Origin: Candidatus Bathyarchaeota archaeon
GTDB lineage: Archaea; Thermoproteota; Bathyarchaeia; Bathyarchaeales; Bathycorpusculaceae
Assembly: GCA_963775685.1 (NCBI GenBank)
Contig: CAVZJV010000014.1
Span: 608,001-672,000 of the forward strand
Direction: 5' to 3'
Length of the DNA stretch: 64,000 nt
Under the pieces are notes generated by a model. The model saw nothing but the letters and a program-made list of their open reading frames with translations. It searched no databases and was not told the origin of the DNA. Positions 19,209 through 53,813 of the stretch are shown here, in pieces (the first letter of the stretch is position 1; the number at the start of each line of letters is the position of its first letter). The translations under genes were made by a program, and so were the position numbers.

Positions 19209-19312
19209 GGTTTGCTGAGACCCTGGACGACAAAGAGAGAAAAGAACGCAAATGCAAATTCGTTTTGGAAGGTTGTAAGTCCCATTAATTTTAACCAGAG
19301 CTTACTCAGCCC
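19209..19312 (-). repeat. Structured repeat element, copy A (downstream of beta-propeller gene P1)
   Basis: Minus strand GGGCTGAG-TAA-GCTCTGG...AACG-A-ATTTGCATTT-G-CGTT...CCAGGGT-CTCAGC-AAACC; homologous to copies B-F. Confidence 0.85.
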
Positions 19313-19389
19313 GCTTCTTGTTTTTCATTGCGTTTTTGAACTAAAAAAGGGGAAGGATTGTTTTGTTTGTTTTGTTTGATGTTGACTGT

Positions 19390-22131
19390 TTAGGGTCGCT
19401 TTCTTAACAACAGAATTGCCAGCAAAGCCCCAACTATGGCGATAGCAACAATGATACCTGCAACGGCCGGGACAAAGTATTGATCAGTAACAGACTGAAC
19501 CACTTCCGCAGTAGGAACTGGTGTTGGCGCTGCTGGATCAACGTTAAAAGCGGTGACTGCATGCGATGGCCAGTAAGACTCACTTCCGGCAAATGTGGCA
19601 GTGACTGTAAATTGTCCATCGATATCTGGCATCCAATCAAAACTGTAGAACCCATCAGCGTTAGCAGTGGTTGTACCGATCTCTCTTTGGTTACCATTAG
19701 CATCAATAACACTTAAGGTAACAGTTACGCCAGTTACGTTTGTTGGGCGTGGCTTTTCCATGTAGACATATTCCATCCATGCACTCTGGCTCTCATCCGA
19801 AACCGCTGGAACCCCATTGGGGAATCGCATACCATTCACTGATTGCGTTGTGCCTGGTGAAACGTCGGTCACTGTGCCTTTTATCATTGCGCTATTTCCA
19901 CTTTGCACTACGTCGTTGGTAACTTCAACTGTCATGGTACTTGGTCCTTTGCCGACAGCATAGACTTGATGGTCATAGTTATTCCAGTAGGTTAATACTC
20001 CGTCTCCAAGTGCAAATGTTGCGGGATGAGCCCAGCCTAGCATGTTCCAGACGATATCGCCGGTAGTGAGGTTAAAGACTCTAACCTTAGCACCCTTCAG
20101 AAGCGGGGTATCAGCTGAGTGCTCATGAGTTCCAATGAAAACTTTACCGTCAGCAGTTAAGCCGTGAAATACAGTGTAGTACTTGAAAATCTCGCCGCCC
20201 GTAAGAGCTGCCTGCTTCCAGAGCAACTCACCAGTATGCAAATCATAACAGAAAACATGCCCAGTATAGCCAGCAGTAATCAGTTTACCATCATAGATCG
20301 ATGATCCAAAGACGTTCATGAGACTGACCCAGGTATAGTAGCCAAATGGGTTGATATCAGATTGCGGTGCAGAGGTCCAAAGCAGATTTCCAGTATAAAC
20401 ATCAAAGCCCAGCCAAGTAAGCGATGGCATCTCCTGCATTACAAAAACGCCCTCGCCAGCGCGGATAAAAAGCCTCTGAATGACTTCATTGTTACTAACA
20501 AAGGTCATATCATAGTTCTTCATCCAAAGCATACGTCCTTCTTCGCCTGGTTTTAAGCTGACAGCAAATAGCGTTGAAACATCTTGGTTGTGATAGTAAA
20601 GTGAACTTGTGCCTGCTCTTGGTAGTGTACCGTTGCTTCCTAGCAGATAATCGCCACGCACTACCTGTAGAATAGTTGGGTTCCAATTTGAGGGCATAGT
20701 TGTTGATATTGAAACATTAAAGTCCCAAGTCGGTATGTCGGGTTGGTTGGGTGCTGTAGACGGTACTCGGATGAGGCTTGCAAGGCTTGCGTTAAATGTT
20801 CCACTTGTCTGATAGGCGAATACTCTAGACGAGTTCCATTCAAATAGTCGCCAGTCACTGCCTTCTCTTTGAATTATGTAGCGTAACTGCTCGCCTTTTG
20901 GACCAGCAACGATAGTGCCTGACGGAACAGAGTTGATGGATAGTGTTGTGGGGGTGGTTCCATAACGCGGATGAATTGCAGTGCCGAAGTTGTTTGAGAA
21001 TATGTAGCCTGGATTAATGACGCCGTGTTGGTTCATGTCATCATATTCAACGTAGTATCCAAAAGATGGACTTGCACTCATGGTTTGGTTGCGCCAGACT
21101 TCCTGACCAGTCTTAAGATCAACACATACCCAAGCGCCTCCAGAACCAGACCAAGTTATTGGTTCTTGGTAGTAGAGCCGACCGTACATGATGATCGATT
21201 GACCGTTGAATCTGGTTTGGTATTGGTGTCCTGCGTTAAAGACTTGTCCTTCTCTATCGCCCAAAAAGGCGTTTGCGTCTCCGCCGACAACTCCACCATC
21301 CTCAGTTGGTTTAGTCCACAAAATATGTCCGCTGTTTGGTGCAGTTCCTTGCGTCTGAACTCTGTTATCGGAGCTCCCAAAGTCAGTGTCGGCAGCACTG
21401 TTGAGCCAGTTTGAGGAAACTGCGCCCCAAGTATTGTCCTGCCCTTCAATTGGTCTAGCCCAGTATTCTGTTGGGAGCGGATAGTACGTAATAGCACTTG
21501 TTGAAATAGGGTCTTGCTGCACCGCCACTATGTAGGTGCGGTTGCTTGACAAGAAAGTAACTCCATAGTAGTCTCGGCCTGCGAGCGGGTAGCTACTGCT
21601 ATCGTTCCCTGCTTCTTTAAAGATCCAGTTAAGTTGTTCGAATACGACCATCACAGAGTAGTTGCCGATTGCATCGGGTGTGTACTTAGTATATGTTGTC
21701 CCTGTAGAGTCAGAAGTCAACGAACCGGATGAAGGAAGTGTTTCTGTTAATCCATCAGGTTTAGTTATTACTACATGGTATTTGTATCGGATGTCGTTGG
21801 TGTCTTGGGCTTGATAGGGAACCTGGGGGTTGAATATTACCATAGTAAATTCCTGGCCAACACCCAGTGGGTTTGGCGAAATTGTACTAAAGACCCATGT
21901 TGGAATTTGGTCGTGATATCGGTTCCAAAGAGTAAGCCTAGTAGTTGATGCGTTAGCGTCGAGATTCCAAGTCATGCCTGCGTTGATTGCATCTGCAGTT
22001 GCCTGGTTGTAGTTGATTCCGTTAATTACTTCCGCTGTTACGGTTGGTTGTGGTGCTAACATTGTCGCCATAGATGTTACTAGAATTATAGCGATAATAG
22101 TTGCCAAAGTTTGGTTTTTAGATATTCGCAT
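19390..22131 (-). CDS. Secreted, membrane-anchored PQQ-like beta-propeller surface protein (P1)
   Basis: Signal peptide from ATG 22131 (MRISKNQTLATII), PNPLGVGQ, PTEYWARP, HILWTKP..GGVVGG, DxxTGxxxW repeats, Ig-like C-terminus, TM anchor ending LRKRP. Confidence 0.88.
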   Translation of the reverse strand: MRISKNQTLATIIAIILVTSMATMLAPQPTVTAEVINGINYNQATADAINAGMTWNLDANASTTRLTLWNRYHDQIPTWVFSTISPNPLGVGQEFTMVIFNPQVPYQAQDTNDIRYKYHVVITKPDGLTETLPSSGSLTSDSTGTTYTKYTPDAIGNYSVMVVFEQLNWIFKEAGNDSSSYPLAGRDYYGVTFLSSNRTYIVAVQQDPISTSAITYYPLPTEYWARPIEGQDNTWGAVSSNWLNSAADTDFGSSDNRVQTQGTAPNSGHILWTKPTEDGGVVGGDANAFLGDREGQVFNAGHQYQTRFNGQSIIMYGRLYYQEPITWSGSGGAWVCVDLKTGQEVWRNQTMSASPSFGYYVEYDDMNQHGVINPGYIFSNNFGTAIHPRYGTTPTTLSINSVPSGTIVAGPKGEQLRYIIQREGSDWRLFEWNSSRVFAYQTSGTFNASLASLIRVPSTAPNQPDIPTWDFNVSISTTMPSNWNPTILQVVRGDYLLGSNGTLPRAGTSSLYYHNQDVSTLFAVSLKPGEEGRMLWMKNYDMTFVSNNEVIQRLFIRAGEGVFVMQEMPSLTWLGFDVYTGNLLWTSAPQSDINPFGYYTWVSLMNVFGSSIYDGKLITAGYTGHVFCYDLHTGELLWKQAALTGGEIFKYYTVFHGLTADGKVFIGTHEHSADTPLLKGAKVRVFNLTTGDIVWNMLGWAHPATFALGDGVLTYWNNYDHQVYAVGKGPSTMTVEVTNDVVQSGNSAMIKGTVTDVSPGTTQSVNGMRFPNGVPAVSDESQSAWMEYVYMEKPRPTNVTGVTVTLSVIDANGNQREIGTTTANADGFYSFDWMPDIDGQFTVTATFAGSESYWPSHAVTAFNVDPAAPTPVPTAEVVQSVTDQYFVPAVAGIIVAIAIVGALLAILLLRKRP

Positions 22132-22154
22132 TTTTTTAATTCTCCAAAGTTTAT

Positions 22155-22184
22155 AGAGTGTCCTTTCCGTAGAAAAGACACTCT
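22155..22184 (-). other. 13-bp hairpin with a cUACGg (UNCG) tetraloop in the P1 leader
   Basis: Minus strand AGAGTGTCTTTTC-TACG-GAAAGGACACTCT, between the TATA-like box and the RBS. Confidence 0.7.
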
Positions 22185-22209
22185 GCCTGCCATCTATCCA
22201 CAAGTTTGC

Positions 22210-22249
22210 TTTTAAAATGGATTGGAAAGTGGACACTTACGACAAAAAT
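22210..22249 (-). promoter_or_regulatory. Conserved upstream motif and TATA-like box of P1
   Basis: TTTGTCGTAAGTGTCCACTT then TTTTAAAA; the same motif lies before P2, P4 and P5. Confidence 0.6.
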
Positions 22250-22387
22250 GGAGTTTGAGAGGAAGCGAAATTAGAACATTGGTTGATTAGTCAGTTGTTA
22301 ATCACACCATGAAAAATCTTGCTTAATTTTAAGCCATTTAAAAAAAGCAATGGACAAAAAATCTCTGAGCCTGTTTTAGCTACTTGA

Positions 22388-22486
22388 GGTTTCAGGGGCT
22401 GTGGACGGCAAGGAGAGAAAAGAACGAAAGTGCAAATGTAACGATTAGTAAACACTGTTAATGTTAACTATGAACCTCCTCATCCT
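22388..22486 (-). repeat. Structured repeat element, degenerate copy B (upstream of P1)
   Basis: Minus strand GGATGAG-GAGGTTC...TTTGCACTTTCGTTCTTTTCTCTCCTTGCCGTCCACAGCCCCTGAAACC; core very similar to copies A and F. Confidence 0.75.
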
Positions 22487-22702
22487 CATCAACACTCAAA
22501 TTCTAATTCTTTCATCATTTTATTTTTCAGACAACACCCCGAGTTCTTTGATCAGTTGTCCCTGCCTTGGACTCGATTTAGTTGATGTGTAAAGGTGATT
22601 GATAAGAGGCATTGACGTTAAAATATCGAGGGAATTGCGAAAAATTTATGAACACTTCACCTTAAAATGTGATGTGGGCAGGATTAAGAGAAAAAGTAGG
22701 GG

Positions 22703-23566
22703 TTGCTTATGGAAGAAGACTTTGTTGTCAAAATGGAAAGCTTTGGCTTTACGGTTAACCAGGCTAAAGTGTATTTGAGTATTGTACAATCAGGTAAAAC
22801 CCGGGTAGGAAAAATTTCAAAATCAACGCAGCTACATAGGCAAGACATTTACAAACTGTTGCCTAAACTTGAAAAAATGGGATTAATTACAAAAACAATT
22901 AACAAACCATTTATGATTGAAGCCATCCCAATCGAAAAAGCGCTAGAAACTTTAATTTCGAAAGAAAGAGAAAAATCCCACAAGCGAATTTCTCATTTGG
23001 AAAGTAACCTGAAAGAAATGGTAAATTCAATCCAGAGACAACCAGAAATTAAAGAAGAAACACGATTCAATCTTCTAAGCACCGATGAAGCCATAAGAAA
23101 CAGAGGAAGTCTAACTGTTAAGAAACTGAAAAAAGAGTGCCTCTTTGTAGTCAATCTCGAAAATATTCAAACACGTTCTGCGCATTTCCGCGAATTCCTC
23201 CAGGCAATTGCCCACACGAAAGCCAAAACAAAATTAATTGTTGTAACTAAAGAAGATAATGAGGCCGCTAAACAAGCTATTGAAAAAATAGCTCCATTCA
23301 ACGGTGAATTAACCGTCAAATCAATCGATAAAGCAACCTGTAAAAACTATCAAATCTTAGATAACAAGGAAATATGGATTGCTACCCAACAGAAAACGGA
23401 ATCGGGTCATCCTAGCATGCTTTGTACAAACGACCAGAACATAATTGACGTATATAAGGAGAGTTTCAGAAAAGCGTGGAATCGCAGTAAAGCAACGATC
23501 ACGCTTGGCATCACGATTTCATCATTCGCTTGCATCTCCCTTTCGCTTATGGATTTACTTGCCTAA
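22703..23566 (+). CDS. TrmB-family transcriptional regulator
   Basis: FGFTVNQAKVYL...HRQDIYKLLPKLEKMGLI wHTH plus a C-terminal effector domain; divergent from P1. Confidence 0.85.
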   Translation: MLMEEDFVVKMESFGFTVNQAKVYLSIVQSGKTRVGKISKSTQLHRQDIYKLLPKLEKMGLITKTINKPFMIEAIPIEKALETLISKEREKSHKRISHLESNLKEMVNSIQRQPEIKEETRFNLLSTDEAIRNRGSLTVKKLKKECLFVVNLENIQTRSAHFREFLQAIAHTKAKTKLIVVTKEDNEAAKQAIEKIAPFNGELTVKSIDKATCKNYQILDNKEIWIATQQKTESGHPSMLCTNDQNIIDVYKESFRKAWNRSKATITLGITISSFACISLSLMDLLA

Positions 23567-23589
23567 AAACAGTCCAAAGACTAGGCATT

Positions 23590-24834
23590 TTATGCTTCTT
23601 TAACGCTTGGCTCGTATACTTTCCAGTATACAAAAATCGAGAGCGGTATTGCTGTTGCAGCTAACATCAGAAATGGAAGCTGGGGAGAAACATAAGCGTA
23701 CAGGAATCCAACTACGAGTTGTAGGATGGCTTGCATCAGAAACATGAAAAACTGAAGGCAGCCCGTAACTGTTCCCCTTAAACCTCTGGGAACCAAATCA
23801 CCCATTAATACGGTGTAGCTGTTTAGCTGCAACAAATTGCCCAATCCAAAGAAGAAAAACGCAAGGAGAAGCATGTTAAAATCTGCGTTAATAAAAAGGA
23901 GCATACCTGGAACATACAGTAGATACCCAAGTATCAGGAAACGTTTTCTTCCTCTGACATCCATGCTTAATCCTGCTAGTATACCAGGGATTGCTATGGT
24001 TAGGTACCTGAAGGTAACGACGATAGCCCATTGCTCAAGTGACACTTTAAGGATTGAAGTTGCATAGACCACAAAATAGGTTTGGCAACTGACTACCAGC
24101 CCGTTTATGATTATGATCGCTAAAAAGAGGTTAAAGGCTGACCTTGGGACTTTTTGCCAAACAGAAATGCCTTCTTTTACTGATTTAGCATATCCGCGGA
24201 AAGCATTTTGGATACTGATTTTTGTTTTTTGTCCTGTTTGTGGCAATGTTTCTTTTAGTCTTAGCCTTAAGACACTTATAACAAAGTATGCGGCGGCTAC
24301 GAGGGTGTATGCTATGCGCATGCCTAAATCGAAGTGAAAAGCGGCAACCAAATATTGCGCAATAAGCGGGGCAGGCAAAAGGACTATAGTTGTTATGACT
24401 GATTGAAAACTAAAGCCCGCACCTCGGTTTTCAGGCGGCAGTGAATCGATAATCATAGCCATTAGGGCTGGCCCGTAGATGGAGCAAACGTTCTGAATCA
24501 ATAAGCCGATTAGAATAAACTGCCATGACGGGGCAAATATGAAAAACAGGCTGCCTATTGCTAACCCAAAAGTCATGGTGACTATGAGCCCTCGTCTGCC
24601 TTGTTTATCCGCTAAGTAGCCGCCAGGGAACTGGACAAGAGCAACCGCTATTGATCCCGCAAAGCCCATAACCGATAATAGAAATTTGTCTGCGCCAAGG
24701 CTCAAGTAGAAGAGACTTGAATAGGTATCGGGGATGGGTTGAACGGCAAATAGGATAATCCAGCTTAGAGTGATGAGTAAAAAGTTGCCTCTCAATACGG
24801 CGGAGTCTCCGCGGAATAGCGCTGACAACTTCAT
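23590..24834 (-). CDS. MFS transporter
   Basis: GGYLADKQGRR motif A, about 12 TM helices. Confidence 0.9.
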   Translation of the reverse strand: MKLSALFRGDSAVLRGNFLLITLSWIILFAVQPIPDTYSSLFYLSLGADKFLLSVMGFAGSIAVALVQFPGGYLADKQGRRGLIVTMTFGLAIGSLFFIFAPSWQFILIGLLIQNVCSIYGPALMAMIIDSLPPENRGAGFSFQSVITTIVLLPAPLIAQYLVAAFHFDLGMRIAYTLVAAAYFVISVLRLRLKETLPQTGQKTKISIQNAFRGYAKSVKEGISVWQKVPRSAFNLFLAIIIINGLVVSCQTYFVVYATSILKVSLEQWAIVVTFRYLTIAIPGILAGLSMDVRGRKRFLILGYLLYVPGMLLFINADFNMLLLAFFFFGLGNLLQLNSYTVLMGDLVPRGLRGTVTGCLQFFMFLMQAILQLVVGFLYAYVSPQLPFLMLAATAIPLSIFVYWKVYEPSVKEA

Positions 24835-24946
24835 TACCGATAAAAATTAGTTAAGAATTATTTAAATTAAGAGAGCCAACCGCTGAAAACGATCCTAAAA
24901 AATCATTTACTGTTTTACTGCCCACAATTCTTAAATCGCCCCTGCA

Positions 24947-26341
24947 ATGAGCATAATTAGACTATCAAAAATGAAAAGCGTTCAAGAAGGAAAATTCAAG
25001 CTCAAAGCACTAAAAATTTCAGCTACTGCAATTTTTAGCGTAGTAATAGTTGAGGTTACGGTTGGCTTTCTTGTTAATAGTTTAGCGATAATGAGTGACG
25101 GCTTACATGCCTTACTCGATGCACTATCTAGCTTAATGCTGTTTTTTGCAGTTCGAGCCGCAATGAAGCCTGCTGACGAAGAACACACATATGGACATGA
25201 AAAGTTCGAGACCATAGGCGGATTAATAGGTGGTATAGTCTTAATCGCCGTTGCACTCTTAATTTTCTACGAAGCTGCTTTGAGACTTATAGAGCCCCCG
25301 CATCTTGTTGCAGGTATAGAATATGCTGGTTTTGTCGCAGTCGGCTACGCGCTTTTCATTGCTTCTCTTAGAGTTACGGTCTTCAAGAAATTCCAACATG
25401 TTGAGAGCCCCTCGATGAAAGCAGGCTTCTACGACGCTGTCTCCGATTTAAGCTCAACTCTTATAGCACTATTAGGTTTTGGCTTAGCCACATTGGGCTT
25501 TACTGGCGGCGACTCCTTCGCATCCATTTTCCTTGGAGTAATGCTTACCTACTTAAGCATCAAACTTGTAAAATTCAGCGTAATGGAGCTAAGCGACACC
25601 ACTTCAAGAGAGCTCGTGGAGAAAACGAGGAAAATAATTCTATCTTGTGAAGGCGTTGTTAAAACAGAAAACCTAAAAGTTCGAAAGGTAAGCTCAAAGA
25701 TTTTTGTTGAAGCATCAGTTCAAGTTCCCAACCTAATGAGTTTGGAAGAAGCGCATGCTTTAGCCTCAAAAATCGAATCATGCTTAAAAGATTCATTAAC
25801 AAACGTGGACGCTACCATCCACATTGAACCCTCTGACAAAGAGAAAAAAATGGACCATCTAATCGAGAAACTCGCAATAGTTGACGGTGTCATAGAAGTT
25901 CATGAAATCTCCACCATCTTTGTTGGTGGAAAACTCTACATTACTTTGCATGCCTATGTTAATCCTGAACTGTCAGTGGAAGAGGCACATAAAATTGCCG
26001 AAAACATCGAAAGCAGAATGGAGGCTGAAATTAAGTCGCTTGAAAATGTTACGGTTCACATTGAACCGGCAGGCGTCGCCATTCCTGTGGCAGAGGTGAA
26101 TGAGGCGCAACTCCGAAAAGTCGTTAATGATGTTGCTAAAAATATTTTGGGTAACCTTCGGATTAAGCGGGTGGTGACTTATGCTGCAGGTGGCAAACGC
26201 TACATAAACATTGATTGTTGCTTTACAAAGCATGTTCAGATTAAGGAGGCACATTCACTGGCATCGCAGGTTGAGAAAGAAACTAAAGAGCACTTTACCA
26301 ACGTTGTGGTTACGGTCCACATTGAGCCAGAATGCCCCTAA
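24947..26341 (+). CDS. Cation diffusion facilitator with three C-terminal dimerization domains
   Basis: SDGLHALLD, HTYGHEKFE; three repeats of E(E)AH...T(I/V)HIEP. Confidence 0.9.
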   Translation: MSIIRLSKMKSVQEGKFKLKALKISATAIFSVVIVEVTVGFLVNSLAIMSDGLHALLDALSSLMLFFAVRAAMKPADEEHTYGHEKFETIGGLIGGIVLIAVALLIFYEAALRLIEPPHLVAGIEYAGFVAVGYALFIASLRVTVFKKFQHVESPSMKAGFYDAVSDLSSTLIALLGFGLATLGFTGGDSFASIFLGVMLTYLSIKLVKFSVMELSDTTSRELVEKTRKIILSCEGVVKTENLKVRKVSSKIFVEASVQVPNLMSLEEAHALASKIESCLKDSLTNVDATIHIEPSDKEKKMDHLIEKLAIVDGVIEVHEISTIFVGGKLYITLHAYVNPELSVEEAHKIAENIESRMEAEIKSLENVTVHIEPAGVAIPVAEVNEAQLRKVVNDVAKNILGNLRIKRVVTYAAGGKRYINIDCCFTKHVQIKEAHSLASQVEKETKEHFTNVVVTVHIEPECP

Positions 26342-26479
26342 CCTAAAGAATGTTAAAAAACAAAACAAGCCGAACAAAAAAAGAAAGTTAACTAAGATAC
26401 GAAAATAATTTTAGCAAATAAATTGAGAGCCAAGAAGTAAAATTAAGGATTAAAGTAAAAAAAATAAAAAAGGATGGAT

Positions 26480-29724: not shown

Positions 29725-29847
29725 CCCTCTTCTCCTTTTTTGTGCAGCTAAAAGAAAAAAAACATACAAGACTCAAAAATTATGTAAGATTTAAATGGTT
29801 TCACCCTTATTATTTGCTCTAATAACCCATTCAGCGAGACCTCTTGC

Positions 29848-38160: not shown

Positions 38161-39459
38161 ATGAGAAAATACGCTAGAGAGTGGGTTCAAAATTATCCCA
38201 GCATCGCAAAAATCTATGAAGCAATCGCGGGCATCAGGCGAATGGGCTCCGAGGGCACAGTTGAGATTTATGTTAAGGGCGTAAAAGGTTTCGTTGAGTA
38301 TTTAGGCTATTCTGACCCTGAAACAGCGCTCCTAGCAATTAAAGAAGGCAAGATAAACGTCGAAGAGAAAGTAGACAAATTTATCGATTATGCATTAGAA
38401 GAACAAAATAAAGCTCACAATCACGTTCGTAATCATGTTTTTGGCGTCAAAAAATGGTTTGGGTTAAACGGTATCCAAATGGATTGGAAGAAAATTGAGC
38501 TACCAACCACGTCAGAAATCCGAGAAGAGGATCGAGCACCTACAAAAGATGAGCTAAAGAGTCTGCTTAATCATGGAACATCTCGAGACCGTGCGGTTAT
38601 TTTTTGTGATTCAAGCAGTGGTCTTAGGGCAGGTACTCTCTTTAGCTTAAAGAAAGGGGACTTAGACCCTAATTATCCAGATTTGGCACGTTTAACTGTT
38701 CAAAGGAAAAGAGGTAGAAAATTCACTAGTAAGCGACGAGGAACTGCGGGAAGGTTATTCTGCACTTTCATTACGCCCGAAGCAAAGACCGCTCTGCTGC
38801 AATACTTCGAGGAAAGAGAAGCAGCAGGAGAAGTCCTAACTGATGAATCACCTCTCATAGGCGATAATTATCATAAAGGCAAGTTCACAACCATAGAGGA
38901 TTACGAAAAGGTCTGGGCAAGAATCCTAAAGCGAGCAGGATTAGCCAAAAAATCAAACAAATGGTACGAGCTACATATTCATACGCTAAGAAAGTATTTC
39001 CGTTCAAACTGCATCGGAGTTGACGCCAGTTACCGAGAACGCTGGATGGGCCATAAAGGACTCTACCTTGACATGAGTTACTTTAAAGCTGATGAACCAA
39101 AGAATCTGGAAGAATACCGCAAAGTCATTCCGCATTTAACTATTCAGGCAACTCCAATAGAAGAGAAGAAACTACGGTCGAAGATGCTTCTCGACTTCGC
39201 AAGACTCCAAGGGTACGATGACAATCAACTGCAAAAACTAGGCGATGTTTTAGCAAGAGCCAAAGACGTTGATGAAGCCATAACAGAATTTAGACATCTG
39301 AACGAAGACAGCGCACAGACAGACAACAGAGCTCAAAGTAGAAGTGCAACTGGAAAGTACAGCGTCGTGAAGGGAGAAGGGGAACTTGTTAAACATTTAG
39401 ATGACGGCTGGAGTTTAATTCAGAGCCTAAGCGAAGAAAAGTTTCTAATGAAAATGTAG
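38161..39459 (+). CDS. Tyrosine recombinase/integrase
   Basis: Catalytic set SSGLR, HTLRKYF, WMGH, DMSY. Confidence 0.9.
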   Translation: MRKYAREWVQNYPSIAKIYEAIAGIRRMGSEGTVEIYVKGVKGFVEYLGYSDPETALLAIKEGKINVEEKVDKFIDYALEEQNKAHNHVRNHVFGVKKWFGLNGIQMDWKKIELPTTSEIREEDRAPTKDELKSLLNHGTSRDRAVIFCDSSSGLRAGTLFSLKKGDLDPNYPDLARLTVQRKRGRKFTSKRRGTAGRLFCTFITPEAKTALLQYFEEREAAGEVLTDESPLIGDNYHKGKFTTIEDYEKVWARILKRAGLAKKSNKWYELHIHTLRKYFRSNCIGVDASYRERWMGHKGLYLDMSYFKADEPKNLEEYRKVIPHLTIQATPIEEKKLRSKMLLDFARLQGYDDNQLQKLGDVLARAKDVDEAITEFRHLNEDSAQTDNRAQSRSATGKYSVVKGEGELVKHLDDGWSLIQSLSEEKFLMKM

Positions 39460-44164: not shown

Positions 44165-46651
44165 ATGCTGAATTTAAAAAGTAAAACTATGGCTATTTTG
44201 ATTGCTATAATTCTAATGATAACCACCTTCTCTGTTTCAATTATGGCGGATGTACCTGTTGCAAATGCCCTAACTCATACTGAGTCCGATACAAATGCCT
44301 TCATAACTGTCAGTCCTAACCCCATCGGGGTTGGTCAGACAATGTTCATAATGTACTGGCTAATCCAGGCTAATCCGCTGTCAGCAGATAACTTGGAAAC
44401 TGTCTGGAAGGATTACACCTTGTTAATCACAAAACCCGATGGAACAACTGAAACTATAATAAAGAACGCCAATGCAGCGGCAGGCCAAGCTACAACATAC
44501 GTTCCTGACAAAATCGGCACCTACACTTTCAAATTTACTTTCCCTGGCCAGCAAGTAAATAGCTCAACAATTGATAATTATTATAGAAGCAGTAATGCCA
44601 CAACCACATGTACAGTGCAAGAAGAACCGATCGCTTCACTACCTCAAAACCCGCTTCCAAACGATTATTGGCAGCGCCCGGTAAACTGGGAAAACCAAGC
44701 ATGGAACTCAATCACAGGAAACTGGTTCGGTGACATCCATCTTTGGGAGAATTGGCAAGCACATGGAAAAACTCAAGGCCTCAATCCCGACACCGTGTCT
44801 CCTCAAAGTGCTCACGTACTATGGACGTTACCCATAGCTGACGGAGGACAAATCGGAGGATCAATGTATAGCGACAACGACAAAAGCAACTATTTCGTTG
44901 GCAAATCATACAAAGAGTATTGGACTCCACCGGTTATCATCAACGGAGTAATGTATTACAATAGTCCTCTTGGTATACCACCGCGCACAGGAGTTACCGC
45001 TGTAGACTTACGTACTGGAAAAGAAATATGGCATAACGAAGCAATTCCATCAATTTCATTTGGCACAGTCTACTCCGAGCATAACCCAAACGAAGTAGGA
45101 GGCTGGCCATACCTATGGTCAACAGGCGCGAACTATACAATGTATGATGCAAACACAGGAAGAAAAATTCTTGACGTCACCGGCATGTCAGGCACTCCAA
45201 TCATAGATGCAACAGGACAGTTACTTGTTTACAGATTGCAAGCAATTAACGTAACTCACGGGTTCTTATCTATGTGGAATGCAAGCAGAGGTACAGGAAG
45301 CACCGGAAATTCTCCTTGGGATAGTTGGAGCTATGATACACCTGCAGGAGGCGTCCTTACCTATGCAAAAGGAATTCAATGGAACGTTACAGTACCAATA
45401 TTTCCGCAGACCGGAAAAACAGTTGCTATCTGGGGCATAAATGACGGTGTAGTACTAGTAACTGGAGAGCAAGCAATCCAAGACTATCAAACAGAGGCAG
45501 GCTATAGCGCGTTAACAGGTGAACTTCTATGGAATACAAACCGATCGATAGGAATGCTCCATGAAACTTCCGCCCTTGTACCAGGACCCATTGCAAACGG
45601 AATCTATACAGAACACAACAAAGAAGTTGGCACCTATTGGGCTTTTGATATACATACAGGTAAACAACTTTGGGTAAGTGAACCAGATCCCAATGCTTGG
45701 AACATTTTTACCAGACAGGGAATTGGTGATGGTAACGTCTTTATGATGGCAGGAGTGGCTTCAGGAAGAGCATACAATGCCAGCACAGGTGCACTTGAGT
45801 GGGAGTTTTTTGCTCCACAAGCAGGGTTGGAAGCTGTCACGCCAACTTATCCTTTCGAAGGAATGTATAACTGTTTGGTCGGCGGCGGAATGACCTTCTT
45901 AGCGGTAACTGACAGCCACGGCGATCAGCTATTCAGAGGGGCAAAAATGTACGCTATCAACATGACAACCGGAGCGGAAGAATGGAGCATCGACGGATTC
46001 TACGGTGAAGCGCACGGAGGAGGACACGCAATGGCAGACGGGTACCTCGTAGCACACAACATGTATGACAATCAAGTCTATATCATCGGTAAAGGTCAAT
46101 CAGCGACTACAATCACTGCACCAACGATTGGTTCAACGCTTGGTTCTACCGTACTGTTACAGGGCACAGTTACAGATCAATCGCCAGGTCAAACATGCTT
46201 AGGAATACCCGCTGCAGGTACACCAGCAATCTCTGATGCAAGCATGAGTGAGTGGACTTCTTACCTCTATATGCAGAAGCAAAAACCCACAAACGCAACG
46301 GGGGTTCCAGTATCAATAGATGCAATCGATCCAAATGGCAACTTAATACACCTTGGCGATGTTACAAGCGATGCAAGCGGTCAATATAGTCTCGCATTAA
46401 ATACTAACACGCTTGCTGCAGGTGCAGGTACATACAAAGTTATCGTAAGCTTCGCAGGCTCCAAATCTTATTTCAGTTCATCCGCACAAACCTCTCTCTG
46501 CGTTACAGAAGCAGCGCCAACAACCGCTTCAGCACCTGTTGCAGCAGTATCCATGGCTGACCAATATTTCATCCCTGCAGTTGCGACAATCATCCTTGCA
46601 ATCGCTATAGGTTTCGCAGTAACAATACTAGTCCTTAGGAAGCGACCATAA
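44165..46651 (+). CDS. PQQ-like beta-propeller surface protein P3 (intact)
   Basis: Signal peptide, PNPIGVGQ, PNDYWQRP, propeller repeats, YMQKQKPTNATGVPV, TM anchor LRKRP. Confidence 0.9.
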   Translation: MLNLKSKTMAILIAIILMITTFSVSIMADVPVANALTHTESDTNAFITVSPNPIGVGQTMFIMYWLIQANPLSADNLETVWKDYTLLITKPDGTTETIIKNANAAAGQATTYVPDKIGTYTFKFTFPGQQVNSSTIDNYYRSSNATTTCTVQEEPIASLPQNPLPNDYWQRPVNWENQAWNSITGNWFGDIHLWENWQAHGKTQGLNPDTVSPQSAHVLWTLPIADGGQIGGSMYSDNDKSNYFVGKSYKEYWTPPVIINGVMYYNSPLGIPPRTGVTAVDLRTGKEIWHNEAIPSISFGTVYSEHNPNEVGGWPYLWSTGANYTMYDANTGRKILDVTGMSGTPIIDATGQLLVYRLQAINVTHGFLSMWNASRGTGSTGNSPWDSWSYDTPAGGVLTYAKGIQWNVTVPIFPQTGKTVAIWGINDGVVLVTGEQAIQDYQTEAGYSALTGELLWNTNRSIGMLHETSALVPGPIANGIYTEHNKEVGTYWAFDIHTGKQLWVSEPDPNAWNIFTRQGIGDGNVFMMAGVASGRAYNASTGALEWEFFAPQAGLEAVTPTYPFEGMYNCLVGGGMTFLAVTDSHGDQLFRGAKMYAINMTTGAEEWSIDGFYGEAHGGGHAMADGYLVAHNMYDNQVYIIGKGQSATTITAPTIGSTLGSTVLLQGTVTDQSPGQTCLGIPAAGTPAISDASMSEWTSYLYMQKQKPTNATGVPVSIDAIDPNGNLIHLGDVTSDASGQYSLALNTNTLAAGAGTYKVIVSFAGSKSYFSSSAQTSLCVTEAAPTTASAPVAAVSMADQYFIPAVATIILAIAIGFAVTILVLRKRP

Positions 46652-46820
46652 ATAAAGAAAAACATACAAACAATCATTTCCTCTTTTTTTAGTTCTAGTC
46701 GAATAATAAATCGTTTTACTAAGCGGGCGATAACTAATCTGAGGCGTATGTTTTCCTTTTCATTCTCTTTTTGGCAATAGCTTTTGCTCTACCAAGAATT
46801 CCCCTAATCTCTTCAATTTG

Positions 46821-47112
46821 TTAATCACTTATTTCGCCCAATTCCACCGAATCAGATATAGCTTTCAATTCAAGTCCCGACGGAATCAAGCTTCCTTGCT
46901 TTACGTAAGTTTCAGCAGGCTCAAGCTCTTTGTGCAAGATTCTCTTAATTCTGCCAGAGAAAACCATTTCATCAATAAGCTTCACCATGCCATCTTCAGG
47001 AACGTCCAGTCTTTGCACACCATAGTTGATTAGATCGGTTTTCTTTGTGTTCCCAAAAGTGCACAGATAGGAAATGATTTTCTGCTCCAAACTCGAAAAC
47101 GATTTTTCCATT
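46821..47112 (-). CDS. Small winged-helix-like hypothetical protein
   Basis: MEKSFSSLEQKIISYLCTFGNTKKTDLINYG...LIDEMVFSGRIKR. Confidence 0.5.
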
Positions 47113-47501
47113 TTAGCGCCCATTTTTCGTTTATCTATAAGCAAATTTAAGTCTTCATAACATGAAAATTGATTTCTTCTCTGGTAGCGAGTCAACAAAT
47201 AATATTAAAACTCCTTGGAAGTTTAACGTCACCAATCTTGCTGGTTCACACATAGTTTTCTAGAAACAAATTCACTATCCGCCCTTGATTTTGATTTAGA
47301 AAATTTTTCTCATTTTGCGTGCCACTTCTTTCTCGATTTTCACATTTGACACACTATTCGGCGGAACATACCCCGAGTGGTGATGTCTCCCGCGCAACTC
47401 TTCCCTTTTTTTCTTAAGCATTTATTTTTGCCATAAGAAAGAGGTAGCCTAACTTCCACAAAAAAATTTTGAATTTAGGAAGTTAGTATCGTAGTCCATC
47501 T

Positions 47502-47625
47502 TGGGGGCTCGTTGTCTAATTACGGACACAACTTTTGATGGATATATCACCCGCAAGACCCTATTTGTATGTACGGGTTGCATTTGCTCTTTTCTACTAT
47601 TTCGGTTCTAGAGCCCCAGCAAACC
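47502..47625 (+). repeat. Structured repeat element, copy C (upstream of P4)
   Basis: TGGGGGCTC...GGTTGCATTTGCTCTTTTCT...TAGAGCCCCAGCAAACC. Confidence 0.75.
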
Positions 47626-47667
47626 AACCTGGCACTTTCTATTCAATTCTTAGCATATAAAGAAGTG

Positions 47668-47708
47668 ATTTGTCAGAAGGAGCACTTGTTACAACATTTC
47701 TTAAACAA
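47668..47708 (+). promoter_or_regulatory. Conserved promoter block of P4 (near-identical to that of P5)
   Basis: ATTTGTCAGAAGGAGCACTTGTTACAACATTTCTTAAACAA. Confidence 0.7.
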
Positions 47709-47755
47709 ACCGAGAAGCAATATAGTAATTACTGAATAAAGGAGAAAACAAAAAA

Positions 47756-50384
47756 TTGCTAAATCTAAAAAACAAAAGCTTAGCTATTTTGATTGCAACA
47801 CTCTTAACAATTTCTATGGGAACTTCAATGCTTATATTACCAAATGCTAACGCACATACGCCTCCATATGAAATTCCAACATATGCCTACATCAGTGTTC
47901 AACCTAACCCCAGTTGGAGCAGGTCAGCAAGTATCCCTTAACTTCTGGATTGACAAAGTACCACCCACCGCAAACCAAGCGTGGGGAGATAGATGGGGAA
48001 ATTTCACAGTGAAAGTTACCCATCCTGATGGAACAATAGAAAATCTAGGACCTTTCACAGCTGATGCCGCTGGAGGAGCACACGCATGGTACACGCCCAG
48101 CACCGTAGGCAACTACACATTTATTTTCACTTTTGGAGGGCAAACATTGGCAGGCAACAATCTATGTCCAGGGTTCACTGCTGCTTCATATCCGAACATT
48201 GGCGATCATTATGCATCAAGCACTAGCGTACCTTATGTCTTGAACGTAGGGCAAGAGCCAACACCAATTCTACCTAACAATCCGCTTCCAACAAGCTACT
48301 GGCAACGCCCCATATTCTCAAACAACTTAGCTTGGTACCAGGTCAGCGGAAACTGGCTTGGTGGCGGCACCGGAGGAAATTCGGGATGTCAATACAATTC
48401 TACCTCAAACTATGTTCCATATTCTACAGCGCCAAATACAGCCCACATAGTTTGGACAAGGGAATACGCGCCTGGGAGGGCTCATCGGCGGCGAATTCGG
48501 CGGCAACATGGTTGACAGCATGATGATGTCAACTTCACAGTACGAGTGCAAGTTTGCGGGAGTAGTCATCAAACGGAGTACTTTACCGTACTTTGGAGCC
48601 GGGTAGTTTGAGAAACTATATGGGCTGGGAAGCAATAAACTTGCGAACTGGAGAACAAATATGGTGGCAGAATCAGTCATACACTAAATGGCTAAGGATG
48701 GGTCAAATCTTTGACTATGTGTCACCCAACCAATATGGCGGACTAGCCGACTTGTGGAGCGTTGAGGACACTGTAGCGCCAAACACTGGTCAAACATGGG
48801 GCATGTATGATGCAATGACCGGCGGCTGGATATTATCTATAGTCAATGCCACAAACCCAACCTGGGCATATGGAGAACGCGGTGAGCTACTAGGCTACTA
48901 CATCAATTCAGCCACAAAAACACTGAATATGTGGAACTCAACCAGATGCCTATTATTAGGACAAAATCCAATGCAAGTTGCCGTTTCAACTGAAGACAAC
49001 TGGCAATGGAGACCAAAAGCAGGTGCAGAAATCGACTTCAAAGTCGGAATACAATGGGCAAAACCCTTGGCAACAACCATGGTAGCCGACAACGGAACAA
49101 CAGTAGATATTTAAGATTGATGCCTGAAAAATCCGGAACTACAGCTTACCCTATGGCAATAACCAAAGTCAATAGCGTAGTAATGGTAGGTAACAGCGGA
49201 GCCGGAGGCAGATTCCAGCAACCAAGGTTCATAGTGAATGAAGCCTATGACCCGATAACAGGCGATTTGAAATGGGGTCCGACAACAATAGAATTAGATC
49301 CATGGTCTAGGATGTCAATGAGTTCTTATGGACAGGGCGTCTTCACTATATTTACTTATGAAACTCAGACAATCAGCGCCTACAGCCAAGCGACAGGACA
49401 GAAGCTATGGGGACCCGTACAGCTAACAACGCCTAATAATCCATGGGGATACTACCTTACGCAATCGATTATTGGTTATGACAAACTCTTTGTGACTGAC
49501 TTCGGAGGAAATGTCCATTGTCTCGAACTTGAAACTAGAAAATTTCTATGGAAGACCAACACTAATGATGTTGCACAAAGAGGTCCAGCAGGAGCAAATA
49601 CTCCTTATGGTATATGGACTATCGCCAACATTCTCTGCTTAGCCGACGGAAAACTTTTCACCATGGGCGGCCACCATACAGTCCACCACTTTTCAACGGC
49701 GGCGAATTAATCGCGTGGAACGCAACTACTGGAGAAAAGGTATCGAGTGATTTGCTTTTGCCATCACAAACAGCGCTAACGGTGTACTATCAGACGGCTA
49801 TCTAGTATACCAAACGCTTATGACAACCGACTTTACTGCTACGCCAAAGGTCTATCAGCCACCACCGTCTCAGCACCAGATCAGCTATCCCAGAGCGATC
49901 TTCTGTGTTGATAAAAGGCACAGTAACCGATCAGTCTCCAGGACAAACTTGCCTAGGGAGTACCTGGAAAGGGAACACCAGCAATAGCCGACGAAAGCAT
50001 GACCGAATGGATGGAATACCTCTACCCAACAACCTATGCCAACAAACGCAACTGGAGTACCAGTTAACATCGATGCCATAGATGCCAACGGCAACTACCG
50101 AAACATCGGAACTGCAACAAGCGATACAACCGGAGCATTGAGTTTAGCTGGAAACCAGATATTCCAGGAAATACACAGTGATCGCCACTTTCCCAGGAAC
50201 AGAAGCGTACTATTCATCAGCTCAGGAAACAAGCTTTGTAGTCGACCCAGTGACGCAAACAGTATCACCGCAACCAGTAGCCAAGCACCAACTACTATGT
50301 ACATAATGGGTGCAGCAATTGCAATTATCGTTGCAATCGCCGTTGTTTCGTCATAACAATACTTGTTTTAGGAAGCGACCTTAA
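47756..50384 (+). pseudogene. PQQ-like beta-propeller surface protein P4, multiply frameshifted
   Basis: At least six overlapping ORF fragments with P1/P3 motifs, ending RKRP-stop at 50384. Confidence 0.85.
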
Positions 50385-50450
50385 AAATGTCATACAAAAA
50401 TCTATCTTTCCCCTTTTTTAGTCTTTTAAAAACATTGGAGAACAAGACGA

Positions 50451-50545
50451 GGGCTGAGAAGGCTCTGGAACAATTAACGAAATAGCCATAGTAAAAGAGC
50501 TTTTGCATTTGCTCTTTTCTTAAAAGCCGGAGTCACAGCAACCCC
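50451..50545 (+). repeat. Structured repeat element, copy D (downstream of P4)
   Basis: GGGCTGAGAAGGCTCTGG...AAAAGAGC-TTTTGCATTT-GCTCTTTT...CCGGAGTC-ACAGCAACC. Confidence 0.85.
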
Positions 50546-50927
50546 ATGATTCTTCAGCAAAAATGTTCCTTGAAACCGTTTTTTAAAGCATAAAAGTGTA
50601 CTGGTAGGATTTGAACCCAGGCGAAAGTGGAGATATCACCCGCAAAACCCCTTTTTTCTTTTCTATTTTGTTAGACGTATGCTTTTAAAATTTATTAACG
50701 AGCCATTTCTGCAAATTAATAAATTTTGAGCCAAGTGCGAGCTTTACTCTTTGGGTCCTTCTAAAATATCTGTTAATCGACCGCTTATCATTACCGATGG
50801 GTCAAAATTGAGTGATCGTTAGGTCGGTCTTTGTCAGTTGTACTTTATACAATATTCTGGATCTTAAGAACGATAAAAATCGTTGGAAAACAAACAAACA
50901 CACAAAAAAACCCACGAAGAAAAGATA

Positions 50928-51033
50928 GGGGCTGAATGGGCTCTGGGTTTAGTTCAAGATACCTATCCATAGTTTGTCGTGGAGAACGTTTGCATTTCGC
51001 TCTTCTCCAAAGACTCCAGAGCCTAAGCAAACC
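50928..51033 (+). repeat. Structured repeat element, copy E (upstream of P5)
   Basis: GGGGCTGAATGGGCTCTGG...GGAGAACG-TTTGCATTT-CGCTCTTCTCC...CCAGAGCCTAAGCAAACC. Confidence 0.85.
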
Positions 51034-51076
51034 AACCGATTTTTCTATCCAATTTTTTAGTATATAAGAAATGTTG

Positions 51077-51118
51077 ATTTTGTCAGAAGAAGTACTTGTT
51101 ACAACATTTCTTAAACAA
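51077..51118 (+). promoter_or_regulatory. Conserved promoter block of P5
   Basis: ATTTTGTCAGAAGAAGTACTTGTTACAACATTTCTTAAACAA. Confidence 0.7.
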
Positions 51119-51162
51119 ATCAAATCTAATATAGTAATTACAGATAAAAGGAAAGAACAAAA

Positions 51163-53655
51163 ATGTTGAATCTAAAAAATAAAACTTTGACAATTTCAAT
51201 TGCTTTGCTTTTAGCATTTTCGATGATCGCTTTGCCTATCGCAGCTAACGTACCTACACATCACAAGTCAACCCACGCATATGTAAGCGCTACCCCCAAT
51301 CCAATCGGTGTCGGACAAGAAACCCTCATACACTTAGGCATCACCGACGAATTACAAGATGTTACATACGGCTGGGAAGGATTAACCGTAACAGTTACCC
51401 GACCAGACAATACAACAACAACCCTTGGTCCTTTCAGAACCGACGCTACGGGCGGAACAGGCACAATTTTCGTACCAGACCAAGTAGGCACGTACATCCT
51501 ACAGGTAAACTTCCCACCACAATGGTTCAACTGGACTACCAACGGCGGAGCCGACATCTGGTATGAAGCAAGCACAAGCGAAAAACTTGCATTAGTTGTT
51601 GACCTAACACCTGACAAATTCTACCCCGGACAACCATTACCAACAGAATATTGGACTCGACCAATCGACGATCAACTTAGGGACTGGTATCAAGTCGCTC
51701 GTGCCTGGCTAGGCTTCTTCAGCTGGCCGCACTTGGAGAGTTCGTTGAGAACAATGATACGCACTGAAACATCACACATTCTATGGGCAAAACCACAAAC
51801 AGTTGGCGGTTTAGTTGGGGACCCATACGGCACAGAAGGCTTCGAGAACGGAGACGCATATGAAGGTCTATGGGGCTACGGCTCACCAGTAATAATCGAC
51901 GGAATAATCTACTACAACAACGACAAAGACGGAGGGATTCTGGAATCGAGCACACCGTCTCAGCGATTGACCTACGCACAGGCGCAGAAATCTGGAACAG
52001 AGCACTTATCGGACCAGACAACATATCCCGATCACTTACATTCGGACAAATCTTATCCTTCAACTCATACAACTACCAAGGCGCATTCTCGTATCTCTGG
52101 GCAACAAGCGACAGCACATGGAATGCATTTGACCCCTTCTCAGGACGATTTGAATATGGCATGACTAACGTACCATCAGGCACACAAATACGCGGACCAA
52201 ACGGAGAAATACTCATCTACACAGTAGATACCACACACAACTGGATGACTCTTTGGAACTCAACCAAAGTCGTCAGCGATTCTGGCAGCTTCTTGCGCAA
52301 CGGCATGGCTTCAACCTACAAAGTAGCTTGGTCTGCTGACCGCAACGGAGGATACATGTGGAACGTAACTATACCCAATGACTTGCCCGGCGGAGCAAAC
52401 GTAGCATACTTAGACGACATAGTTGTAGGCTCAGAATTGCAATCCAGAACAGCGACAGCCAACATCTTAGGTCTCACAGGCAGCCCAATGATTCTGGGCA
52501 CTCAACGTTAAAACTGGTCAAGAAGGGCAACTACTCTACCAGAAATCATGGCAACCACCAACAGACAACCTCTCTATAACATTCGAGAAATCAAGTCTGG
52601 TCGACAACGTATTCACCATCTATAGCAAAGAACTACGCTCACACATTGCCTTTAACATGCACACAGGCGAACAAATGTGGGGGCCAACCACGCCAGATAC
52701 TATCTACAGACCTTTGGTCTTCAGAGCAACTTTGCATATGGTAAACTCTACGTAACAGGGTACGGCGGAATCGTTTACTGCTACGACGCAAAATCAGGCA
52801 ACCTTGTATGGAACTATACAGTCGTCGAACCATTTGGCGGCTCAGAAGTTCATGGAGCAACAATTGGCCAACATCAATACAGTTCATAGCAGACGGCAAA
52901 ATCTACTAGCAAACTCAGAGCACTCAGCCAACCAACCATTGCCAAGAGGCGGACCATTTTTAGCGCTCGATGCAGAAAACGGCAGTGTTGTCTTAGAATC
53001 GACGGCGCATTCCGTCAACCACGTTGGGCTGGGCAAGCCGGCATGGCAGATGGCATAATTGCTCTATTCAACACCTACGACAGCAAATCTACGGAGTCGG
53101 TAAGAGTCCAAGCCAAACAACTGTGACTGCATCACCGAAAATTTCAGAGTTCGGAAACAGCGTCTTAATTGAGGGTACAGTTCCCGAACTTCAGCAGGCA
53201 CACAGGATTCTCGTGTAACAGCACGTTTCCCCAACGGTGTAGCAGCAGTATCCGACGACAGCATGAATGACTGGATGCTATATGTCTATATGCAATTTGC
53301 ACGTCCAACAAACACAACTCGTTCCAGTAGAACTTAGCGTTATCGACACAAACGGCAACGAGCGAACAATCGGCACAACAACAAGCGACTCCAGTGGAAC
53401 ATTCAGTTATCAATGGACTCCTGACATCACAGGCAAATATACCGTTACAGCTACTTTCGCAGGCACCAACAGCTACTGGCCATCATATTCAGAAACCACC
53501 TTCGCAGTTGACCCCGCAACGTCAACACCAATCCCACTGAACCAGTTGTACAATCAGCTGATCAATACTTTATTCCTGCAGTCGCAGGCATAATCGTTGC
53601 AATCGCAATAGTTGGGGCTTTAATCGTACTCTTGATGCTTAGAAAGCGAGCATAA
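51163..53655 (+). pseudogene. PQQ-like beta-propeller surface protein P5, multiply frameshifted
   Basis: Fragments with PNPIGVGQ, PTEYWTRP, HILWAKP, WTPDITG; ends RKRA-stop at 53655. Confidence 0.85.
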
Positions 53656-53717
53656 AAAGAATATGCAACCAAAAAACAACCCATCCTTTTTTAGTCAAAA
53701 AGCAATGAAAGAAAACT

Positions 53718-53813
53718 GGGCTGAGAAGGCTCTGATCAAACTAACAGTGGCCTACTCACTGTAAACGCATTTGCATTTGCGTTTCTCTCCTTGCCCCAGA
53801 GCCTCAGCAAACC
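53718..53813 (+). repeat. Structured repeat element, copy F (downstream of P5; cleanest copy)
   Basis: GGGCTGAGAAGGCTCTG..ACAGTG-GCCTACT-CACTGT-AAACGCA-TTTGCATT-TGCGTTT..CAGAGCCTCAGCAAACC. Confidence 0.88.

Follow-up and report, generated by a model that had tools for sequence, protein, structure and literature searches.

We analysed a stretch of 64,000 nucleotides (nt) from a 3.06-Mb Bathyarchaeia genome in 14 contigs (genome label G000); this stretch, C14:608001-672000, is called the window, and positions without a contig prefix refer to it. Paralogous genes for beta-propeller surface proteins (P1 to P5) lie in the window, and structured repeats of about 100 nt accompany them. An original prediction, made from the window alone, had described six copies of this element (A to F) and offered two readings: an undescribed noncoding RNA or processing signal, or an attC-like or REP-like (repetitive extragenic palindromic) hairpin site at which gene cassettes are shuffled. 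The first half survives and can be made specific: judged from its sequence, the outer stem of the element is the canonical archaeal bulge-helix-bulge (BHB; hBHBh'), the recognition structure of the splicing endonuclease EndA. A BHB-bounded RNA module behind surface-protein genes is the best-supported reading of the locus, and would be a novel variation on a known processing system; we put at roughly 55% the probability that EndA cuts the element free to give a circle of about 75-110 nt, with a UUUGCAUUU loop and a pyrimidine tract complementary to ribosome-binding sites (RBSs).

A widespread repeat family with a covarying fold

The six window copies align with 24 invariant columns and a mean column identity of 58%, and thus form a single family. 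An nhmmer profile built from them found 29 copies in the genome, and 32 after one iteration (E<1e-3), scattered over 2.5 Mb; two covariance models built from the family (reporting cut-offs E<=1e-3 and 1e-4) gave more than 200 matches in the genomes of relatives. With these numbers the family cannot be attributed to chance; both it and its fold are real, and the element is commoner than the six copies first reported. The covariance models recover five of the six window copies (A, B, D, E and F), so that the view of the six as one element holds for these five and only partially for copy C. First given as 47502-47625, copy C is homologous in its 3' half alone and has a different 5' arm, and is partial or rearranged; the stem GGGGCUC/GAGCCCC that had been read there as a covarying version of the outer stem does form on folding, but as a plain stem with no BHB, the 5' GCUG-AGW part being missing. 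For the family as a whole, the architecture first described was confirmed in every part: an outer stem, a bulge, an A(A)ACC tail, and an inner hairpin whose stem changes between subfamilies (ACGCA/UGCGU, AGAGC/GCUCU, AGAGG/CCUCU, GAGCG/CGCUC) while its near-fixed UUUGCAUUU loop is retained.

Of 24 further species in the genus, 21 gave matches to the first covariance model, as did 1 of 16 genomes of other families. The second model, applied with stricter filters to 150 further genomes drawn evenly from the order, matched 20 of 35 genomes in family f1 (six genera), 17 of 35 in f7 and 1 of 25 in f6, with none in the 55 genomes of nine further families, although absence from metagenome-assembled genomes proves little. 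The element is present, then, in two to three families of the order. Its interior motifs, the loop and the tract, are conserved across genera; in a genome of a different family with 16 matches (G040) the BHB core AUGGGGCUGAAAAGGCUC...GAGCCUCAGCAAACCCAU is retained and the interior has strongly diverged.

Selection on a single-stranded fold, as originally proposed, is borne out by covariation. Among 70 distinct model-aligned copies, 91.5% of cells are paired and compensatory changes occur in 16 of 20 pairs; on 105 distinct copies the corresponding figures are 90.0% and 18 of 21. None of 500 shuffles reached any of the observed covariation measures, and sliding the partners by one to three columns lowered pairing to 26-53% (37-53% on the 105-copy set). 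The sense strand outfolds the antisense strand, relative to shuffles, in all six window copies (for copy F, z-scores of -4.25 and -2.36, respectively). A pseudoknot between the leader (GGAGAAAAG, AAAUGCA) and the interior (CUUUUCUCC, loop UGCAUUU) is possible, the low complexity of these segments making covariation uninformative there.

The same substitutions bear on the idea that the repeat is a signal in double-stranded DNA, formed either by two inverted half-sites to which a protein binds or by the terminal inverted repeats of a miniature inverted-repeat transposable element (MITE). Its two arms are inverted and conserved in sequence, as such a signal would have them; however, changes in one arm are compensated in the other at nine of nine pairs of the inner helix, different variants occur side by side in one genome, the inner hairpin covaries as well, and homology runs upstream past the 5' arm. 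The ends are inverted; homology between loci, however, stops at the 3' edge only, no discrete insertion boundary was seen, and neither a transposase nor a target duplication was found near copies that lie away from beta-propeller genes, duplications not having been searched for systematically. We consider a double-stranded DNA signal highly improbable.

As had been suspected, the element matches no known family: Rfam gave no match at gathering score in the whole window, and at E<=1 across 12 loci none on the element, two matches (E 0.15 and 0.5) falling outside it, in a search that a circularly permuted relative would escape. In the available text of the literature on Bathyarchaeia noncoding RNA, integrons and attC sites, BHB-type circular RNA and mRNA introns, supplements excluded, there is no description of such an element; the circular-RNA tables of PMC12918454 and PMC7714728 might bear on its novelty.

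A suggested likeness of the inner loop to a tRNA-Ala(UGC) anticodon loop found no support, as ARAGORN detects no tRNA or transfer-messenger RNA gene in the window and the loop is 9-10 nt long. Two other candidates were rejected. A small open reading frame (ORF) at the 5' end (MGLRRLW...) has a start codon in only 35 of 106 copies and would encode peptides of 6-70 amino acids (aa), and a C/D-box RNA is suggested by CUGA at the 5' end, but by eye there is no box C/box D arrangement.

Copies lie behind beta-propeller genes

The beta-propeller family comprises 74 ORF pieces genome-wide, 35 of them at least 800 aa long, and its proteins combine a PQQ_2-type beta-propeller and Ig-like domains, begin with a signal-like N-terminus and carry a C-terminal membrane anchor whose last residues are RKRP. 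Twenty-two of the 32 genome copies of the element lie about 46-131 nt past the stop codon and oligo-T tract of a co-oriented beta-propeller gene (for one of them, C14:747858, the gene end was assigned from the flank); five are solely upstream of such a gene and five have none nearby. The 28 loci inspected in other genomes repeat this distribution, with 23 downstream, 2 upstream only and 3 without a beta-propeller gene. Upstream copies are scarce, and several are degenerate. The bracketing of P1, P4 and P5 by paired copies, which had been taken as the arrangement of the element, is therefore true within the window but not general: since most copies sit only downstream, it is a local product of tandem genes and lost neighbours. 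Copy E exemplifies such a lost neighbour; the A/C-rich spacer in front of it resembles what a vanished gene 3' end would leave behind. Seen from the genes, the element is directly behind the gene at 14 of 27 loci of P1 relatives, and about 46 family 3' ends in this genome include 19 with a detectable element and several more with decayed remnants.

When paralogous loci are compared, homology stops at the element's 3' edge; upstream it continues across the terminator and into the gene. Pairwise identity averages 68% in the element, against 58% in the last 100 nt of coding sequence and 49% just downstream, the level of shuffled background; the element is the best-conserved segment of these loci.

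These observations can be set against the second half of the original prediction, in which the element is a single-stranded DNA recombination site, attC-like or REP-like, that shuffles gene cassettes, perhaps through the tyrosine recombinase encoded at 38161-39459 (432 aa) beside the four-gene beta-propeller array. In favour of this model, the element is a bulged hairpin that immediately follows an ORF, its ends are conserved and its centre varies, and a recombinase gene adjoins the array; inter-locus homology ending exactly at the 3' edge also speaks for it, as do the different element subtypes carried by close relatives of P1 elsewhere (73-83% identical). The cassettes, however, are not bounded on both sides, copies found only upstream numbering 5 of 32 here and 2 of 28 elsewhere, and the element ends in GGGCUGAG...CUCAGCAAACCC rather than in AAC...GTT core sites. 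The recombinase is a weak match both to Phage_integrase (E 2.4e-5) and to archaeal XerA (52 bits against a 220-bit cut-off), and under this model the conserved unpaired interior motifs and the strand-specific polarity of the BHB have no role. The scattered copies at one gene family also differ from the arrays of short, diverse cassettes described for integrons (PMC9668308). Arrangement, end motifs, rarity of paired copies and the weak recombinase match together leave the cassette model unsupported, and very unlikely to be correct.

The outer stem has the form of a bulge-helix-bulge

A BHB is defined by two 3-nt bulges on opposite strands, a helix of 4 base pairs (bp) between them, and flanking helices (PMC7714728). 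The element follows this order: the outer helix h is GG(G)/CC(C), the 3' strand then bulges at AAA, the central helix is GCUG/CAGC, the 5' strand bulges at AG(A/U), and a helix h' of 9 bp comes last. Across 106 aligned copies, the first bulge is 3 nt long in all (AGA 43, AGU 32, AAA 22, other 9) and the second in 105 (AAA in 89). The central helix is 98.1% paired, hardly varies, and shows almost no covariation of its own; RNAalifold pairs column 16, the A before GGCUC, with the U behind GAGCC (AU 53, GU 5, GC 5). In 6 of the 7 copies with C in place of that U, column 16 is G, and column 13 is A in all 106 copies; because the change of partner tracks column 16 while column 13 is invariant, the central helix has 4 bp and not 5. 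In h', all nine pairs show compensatory change and 91% of cells are paired; h has at least 2 contiguous bp in 92 copies, at least 3 in 60 and at least 5 in 27, covarying flanks extending it in some. All features of a strict hBHBh' occur together in 80 of the 106 copies; of the 27 copies that make up the complete set from this genome, 12 are strict and 20 show no more than one defect.

The polarity of the motif is that of genuine substrates from the same genome. Read 5' to 3', the bulge follows the central helix on each strand, as it does in the tRNA-Trp intron (GCGGG-CUCC-AGA ... GGGG-AAA-CCCGU, read by eye, at what we take to be the canonical 37/38 intron position) and in the 16S processing stem (CUCC-AAA ... 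GGAG-CAA); the antisense strand of the element would give the mirror form. Its bulge bases, AGA/AAA, are identical to those of the tRNA-Trp intron. The genome also encodes both enzymes, with two EndA-domain (tRNA_int_endo) genes at 98 and 85 bits and one RtcB gene at 591 bits. Two EndA-domain genes fit the two-subunit enzyme of TACK archaea, whose (alpha-beta)2 splicing endonucleases have broad specificity and accept relaxed motifs (PMC7714728), and BHB-type circular rRNA intermediates have been observed in some Bathyarchaeia (PMC12918454).

Window copies differ in how completely they retain the motif (Table 1). The lead-in of copy D illustrates an order common to most copies in this and other genomes: stop codon, A/C-rich spacer, CTTTCCCCTTTTTTAGT, A/T-rich stretch, purine-rich leader (often GCAWTGGAGAA), element. 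The T-run and A-rich stretch 20-35 nt upstream of the element resemble the TATA-like boxes of tRNA genes, and by this likeness alone a TATA-like box overlapping the oligo-T tract is a candidate for the element's own promoter.

Table 1. Beta-propeller genes and element copies in the window. Parts of copy F and the predicted products come from a column-to-coordinate map, defects from the BHB check, and the lead-in of copy D from reading the sequence; excised RNAs are predictions that place each cut after the second bulge base.
Feature	Position	Strand	Description
P1	19390-22236	-	Intact, 948 aa; PQQ_2 beta-propeller and Ig-like; C-terminal anchor ending RKRP
P4	47756-50356	+	Beta-propeller paralogue; at least 5 frame changes; 65-69% identical to intact C14:789130
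P5	51163-53593	+	Beta-propeller paralogue; several frame changes
Copy A	19205-19318	-	89 bits; 70 nt past stop codon of intact P1; one BHB defect (A-C at second pair of h')
Copy A, predicted excised RNA	19304-19212	-	93 nt
Copy B	22383-22492	-	42-43 bits; 146 nt upstream of P1 ORF; degenerate, 1 of 4 central-helix pairs left, 4 defects in all
Copy C	47523-47628	+	nhmmer match, model positions 25-117; no covariance-model match
Copy D, lead-in region	50406-50450	+	
Copy D, lead-in tract	50406-50422	+	Pyrimidine/oligo-T tract CTTTCCCCTTTTTTAGT
Copy D, lead-in A/T-rich stretch	50423-50432	+	TATA-like
Copy D, lead-in leader	50433-50450	+	Purine-rich, with motif CATTGGAGAA
Copy D	50445-50548	+	78-81 bits; 89 nt past last open frame of frameshifted P4; one BHB defect
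Copy D, predicted excised RNA	50459-50541	+	83 nt
Copy E	50923-51037	+	69-70 bits; 125 nt upstream of P5; one BHB defect (AAGC for CAGC)
Copy E, predicted excised RNA	50937-51030	+	94 nt
Copy F	53712-53817	+	Best window copy, 85-88 bits; strictly canonical hBHBh'
Copy F, outer helix h	53717-53719 / 53812-53814	+	
Copy F, central 4-bp helix	53720-53723 / 53805-53808	+	GCUG / CAGC
Copy F, bulges	53724-53726; 53809-53811	+	AGA; AAA
Copy F, helix h'	53727-53735 / 53796-53804	+	9 bp
Copy F, inner hairpin	53764-53783	+	Loop AUUUGCAUUU
Copy F, pyrimidine tract	53784-53795	+	
Copy F, predicted excised RNA	53726-53810	+	85 nt

A predicted circular RNA

Building on the observed family, position, fold, BHB geometry and polarity, and on the presence of both enzymes, we propose a model of the element's transcription, cleavage, circularisation and target. 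The gene-sense strand would be transcribed, either by read-through of the oligo-T tract or from the TATA-like box that overlaps it, and the ends of the transcript would pair through 2-5 bp of h, the two bulges, the central helix and h'. EndA would then cleave within both bulges, and RtcB would ligate the released RNA into a circle and re-join the flanks; it is the canonical BHB shape of the outer stem that leads us to predict release as a small circular RNA. If each bulge is cut behind its second base, the pattern seen in tRNA introns, the products predicted for the 80 strict copies are 75-109 nt long (median 92.5), and the predicted junction links the AAA bulge, at its second A, with the AG(A/U) bulge, at its third base.

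Such a circle would hold two inner hairpins, the near-fixed loop and the CUUUUCUCC tract, which is single-stranded and lies between the inner hairpin and the 3' arm. Because this tract complements purine-rich RBSs, the circle may damp or coordinate translation of the beta-propeller family, whose start regions are themselves purine-rich (AGGAGAAAGAAAA-AUG). Pairing of the tract with start regions has a median of -9.1 kcal/mol for the 35 long beta-propeller genes against -5.8 kcal/mol for 1943 other ORFs, and reaches -8 kcal/mol or lower in 86% and 22%, respectively; this complementarity is a hint, as paralogues are non-independent and start calls crude, and it may only mirror a purine-rich RBS. 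A bolder extension, which we think improbable, is that the roughly 30 gene-linked circles would bind the RBSs of the whole paralogue family and so provide family-wide feedback that limits or coordinates surface-protein translation; if true, surface-variation control would have a counterpart at the RNA level that draws on tRNA-splicing machinery.

Beyond the caveat on complementarity, several points weigh against release of a circle. The alignments were fitted to the model structure, so the pair counts lean towards it, and the proportion of strict copies (80 of 106) has an upward bias, as most copies taken from other genomes are top-scoring matches; in the unbiased set from this genome only the 12 of 27 are strictly canonical. 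The outer helix is short, with 2 bp in 32 and fewer than 2 in 14 of the 106 copies. Substitutions in the outer helices show no significant sense skew (G-U 66, A-C 49, binomial p=0.14), so that the claim that they tend to G-U wobbles on the gene-sense strand is weakly borne out; the corresponding inner-hairpin count, G-U 63 against A-C 18, is unreliable because the alignment is loose there and the 3' arm U-rich. As to transcription, read-through is not assured because the oligo-T tract separates gene from element, the proposed promoter is argued purely from likeness to tRNA-gene TATA boxes, and T-runs of five or more within 60 nt downstream occur in 56 of the 106 copies, a mild excess over A-runs of that length (34 copies), and have no fixed position. 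Finally, the BHB core is conserved in sequence as well as shape, which hints at another constraint, as EndA recognition alone does not call for a conserved sequence.

Some of these points feed the main rival, a structured RNA that EndA does not cut, that is, a 3'-untranslated-region (UTR) stability or termination element or a linear small RNA whose likeness to a BHB is incidental. Covariation and position apply to it equally, conservation of the core sequence suggests a sequence-specific partner other than EndA, and a short outer helix in many copies, with 15 of 27 genome copies not strictly canonical, is easily accommodated. It leaves to coincidence, however, the exact 3-nt/4-bp/3-nt geometry and correct polarity kept in nearly all copies across two families, and bulges that are the same as in the genome's tRNA-Trp intron. 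Archaeal cells, moreover, cut BHBs wherever they are present, for example in a Haloferax 5' UTR (PMC7714728). We judge an uncut RNA unlikely, although it deserves to be taken seriously.

Excision could also be of no use to the host. The element might be a selfish intron-like sequence that spreads with or between paralogues, its BHB allowing harmless splicing; the spread of tRNA introns in Thermoproteales offers a precedent. Multiple copies fit this reading, as do decayed or half copies (B, C, C14:1075144 and C14:2279191), the five orphan copies away from beta-propeller genes, and the close P1 relatives with different element subtypes. Upkeep of the element, too, shows no link to the integrity of the neighbouring gene in this genome, strictly canonical copies accounting for 5 of 8 beside frameshifted genes and 6 of 14 beside intact ones. 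Position and orientation relative to the gene are fixed, however, and homology extends upstream into terminator and gene, which points to co-duplication rather than insertion; no transposase and, in a search that was not systematic, no target duplication was seen near the orphan copies; and the loop and tract persist from one genus to another, a conservation for which a junk interior would have no need. A selfish origin seems improbable to us. It is compatible with the processing model, from which it differs only in whether the product serves the host.

Release by EndA as a small circle, if confirmed, would establish that dozens of BHB-bounded RNAs across the genome form a family linked to a single class of protein gene, in an uncultured, globally abundant archaeal lineage. 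The role of EndA and RtcB would widen from maturation of stable RNAs to production of dedicated circular small RNAs, and there would be a handle on the control of a very large, fast-diverging surface-protein family. The prediction is specific, with junction and circle size stated for each copy, and wetland or peat metatranscriptomes could test it.

Neighbouring genes and repeats

P2 (41299-43737), P4 and P5 are each broken by three to six frame changes, and P1, P3 and the housekeeping genes are intact. About one third of the beta-propeller family is fragmented genome-wide; these may be real pseudogenes or long-read homopolymer errors. Upstream of P4 and P5 are two 95%-identical copies of a 41-nt block (47669-47709 and 51079-51119). 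The block includes a palindrome-like TTGTTACAA, has a similar counterpart in front of C14:2021443, and may be the operator of a family-specific regulator. A gene for a TrmB-type regulator (22703-23566) adjoins P1.

A second short repeat is found at 50597-50660 and inside copy C (47539-47561), where blastn shows an insert that resembles this tRNA-like fragment repeat, and elsewhere at C14:73118-73170, 796664-796695, 800683-800715, 1461384-1461440 and 1467723-1467756. On the minus strand it resembles the 3' part of a tRNA, a T-arm-like stretch GGGTTCAAATCC being preceded by GCGGGTGATATCTCC. There are about 8-10 copies, several within 100-150 nt downstream of BHB elements, and ARAGORN calls none of them; they could be leftovers of tRNA-gene integrations or a tRNA-half-like gene.

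Two element copies have tRNA genes nearby. A truncated copy at C14:1247732-1247819 (minus strand) lies about 50 nt downstream of a tRNA 3' end, with GGTTCAAATCC...CCA in its flank and no adjoining beta-propeller gene. The gene for tRNA-Ser(CGA), C14:1902286-1902409 (minus strand), is 100 nt downstream of the element at C14:1902065, and its 37-nt intron contains GAGGGCTGAG, which resembles the element's 5' end, possibly by coincidence. Two 16S genes (C14:2431328-2432822 and C13:15805-17300), whose upstream flanks are identical, are unlinked to the single 23S gene of the genome (C14:2234059-2237091); the 16S stem contains a canonical BHB, and the 23S stem looks relaxed. The window further contains a perfect 40-nt tandem duplication (56249-56328) and three 92-nt direct repeats of 66-100% identity (56045-56136, 57915-58006 and 58536-58627).

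Comparison with known systems

With archaeal BHB introns the element shares the two 3-nt bulges, the 4-bp spacer helix, the flanking helices and the polarity, in a genome that encodes EndA and RtcB, and its predicted circle is likewise of tRNA-intron size. Described BHB substrates are tRNA introns, 16S and 23S processing stems, the cbf5 intron of Crenarchaeota, and a 47-nt intron in the 5' UTR of Haloferax HVO_1309; outside tRNA and rRNA, one mRNA intron and one 5'-UTR intron are named as EndA substrates in the text available (PMC7714728). The element differs in its location outside tRNA, rRNA and coding regions, in the 3' flank of protein genes past the oligo-T tract, and in its dozens of copies per genome at one paralogous gene family. 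Its interior (loop and pyrimidine tract) and BHB core are conserved in sequence, and its cleavage is so far a prediction.

Integron attC sites carry core sites of the form R''...AAC and GTT...R'. The consensus of the element has none, its copies are scattered at a single family of 2.6-kb genes instead of standing in arrays of short cassettes, and there is no integron integrase, the nearby recombinase falling far below the cut-off of the XerA/integron-integrase model by the bit scores given above. Both kinds of element, archaeal attC sites included, fold into an imperfect hairpin, about 100 nt long, directly after an ORF, and in both the ends are conserved and the centre is more variable; an integron array is recognised by at least two attC sites within 4 kb (PMC9668308). 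As with attC sites, too, the copies of the element within one genome resemble each other.

Small RNAs linked to genes and equipped with C/U-rich anti-Shine-Dalgarno seeds form a general class that the predicted product also recalls. In both, a pyrimidine tract, here CUUUUCUCC, stands beside a stable hairpin and is complementary to GGAG-type RBSs, in our case best with the starts of the element's own gene family. Unlike members of that class, the RNA predicted here would be circular and made by splicing, and would come from some 30 gene-linked copies rather than from one locus.

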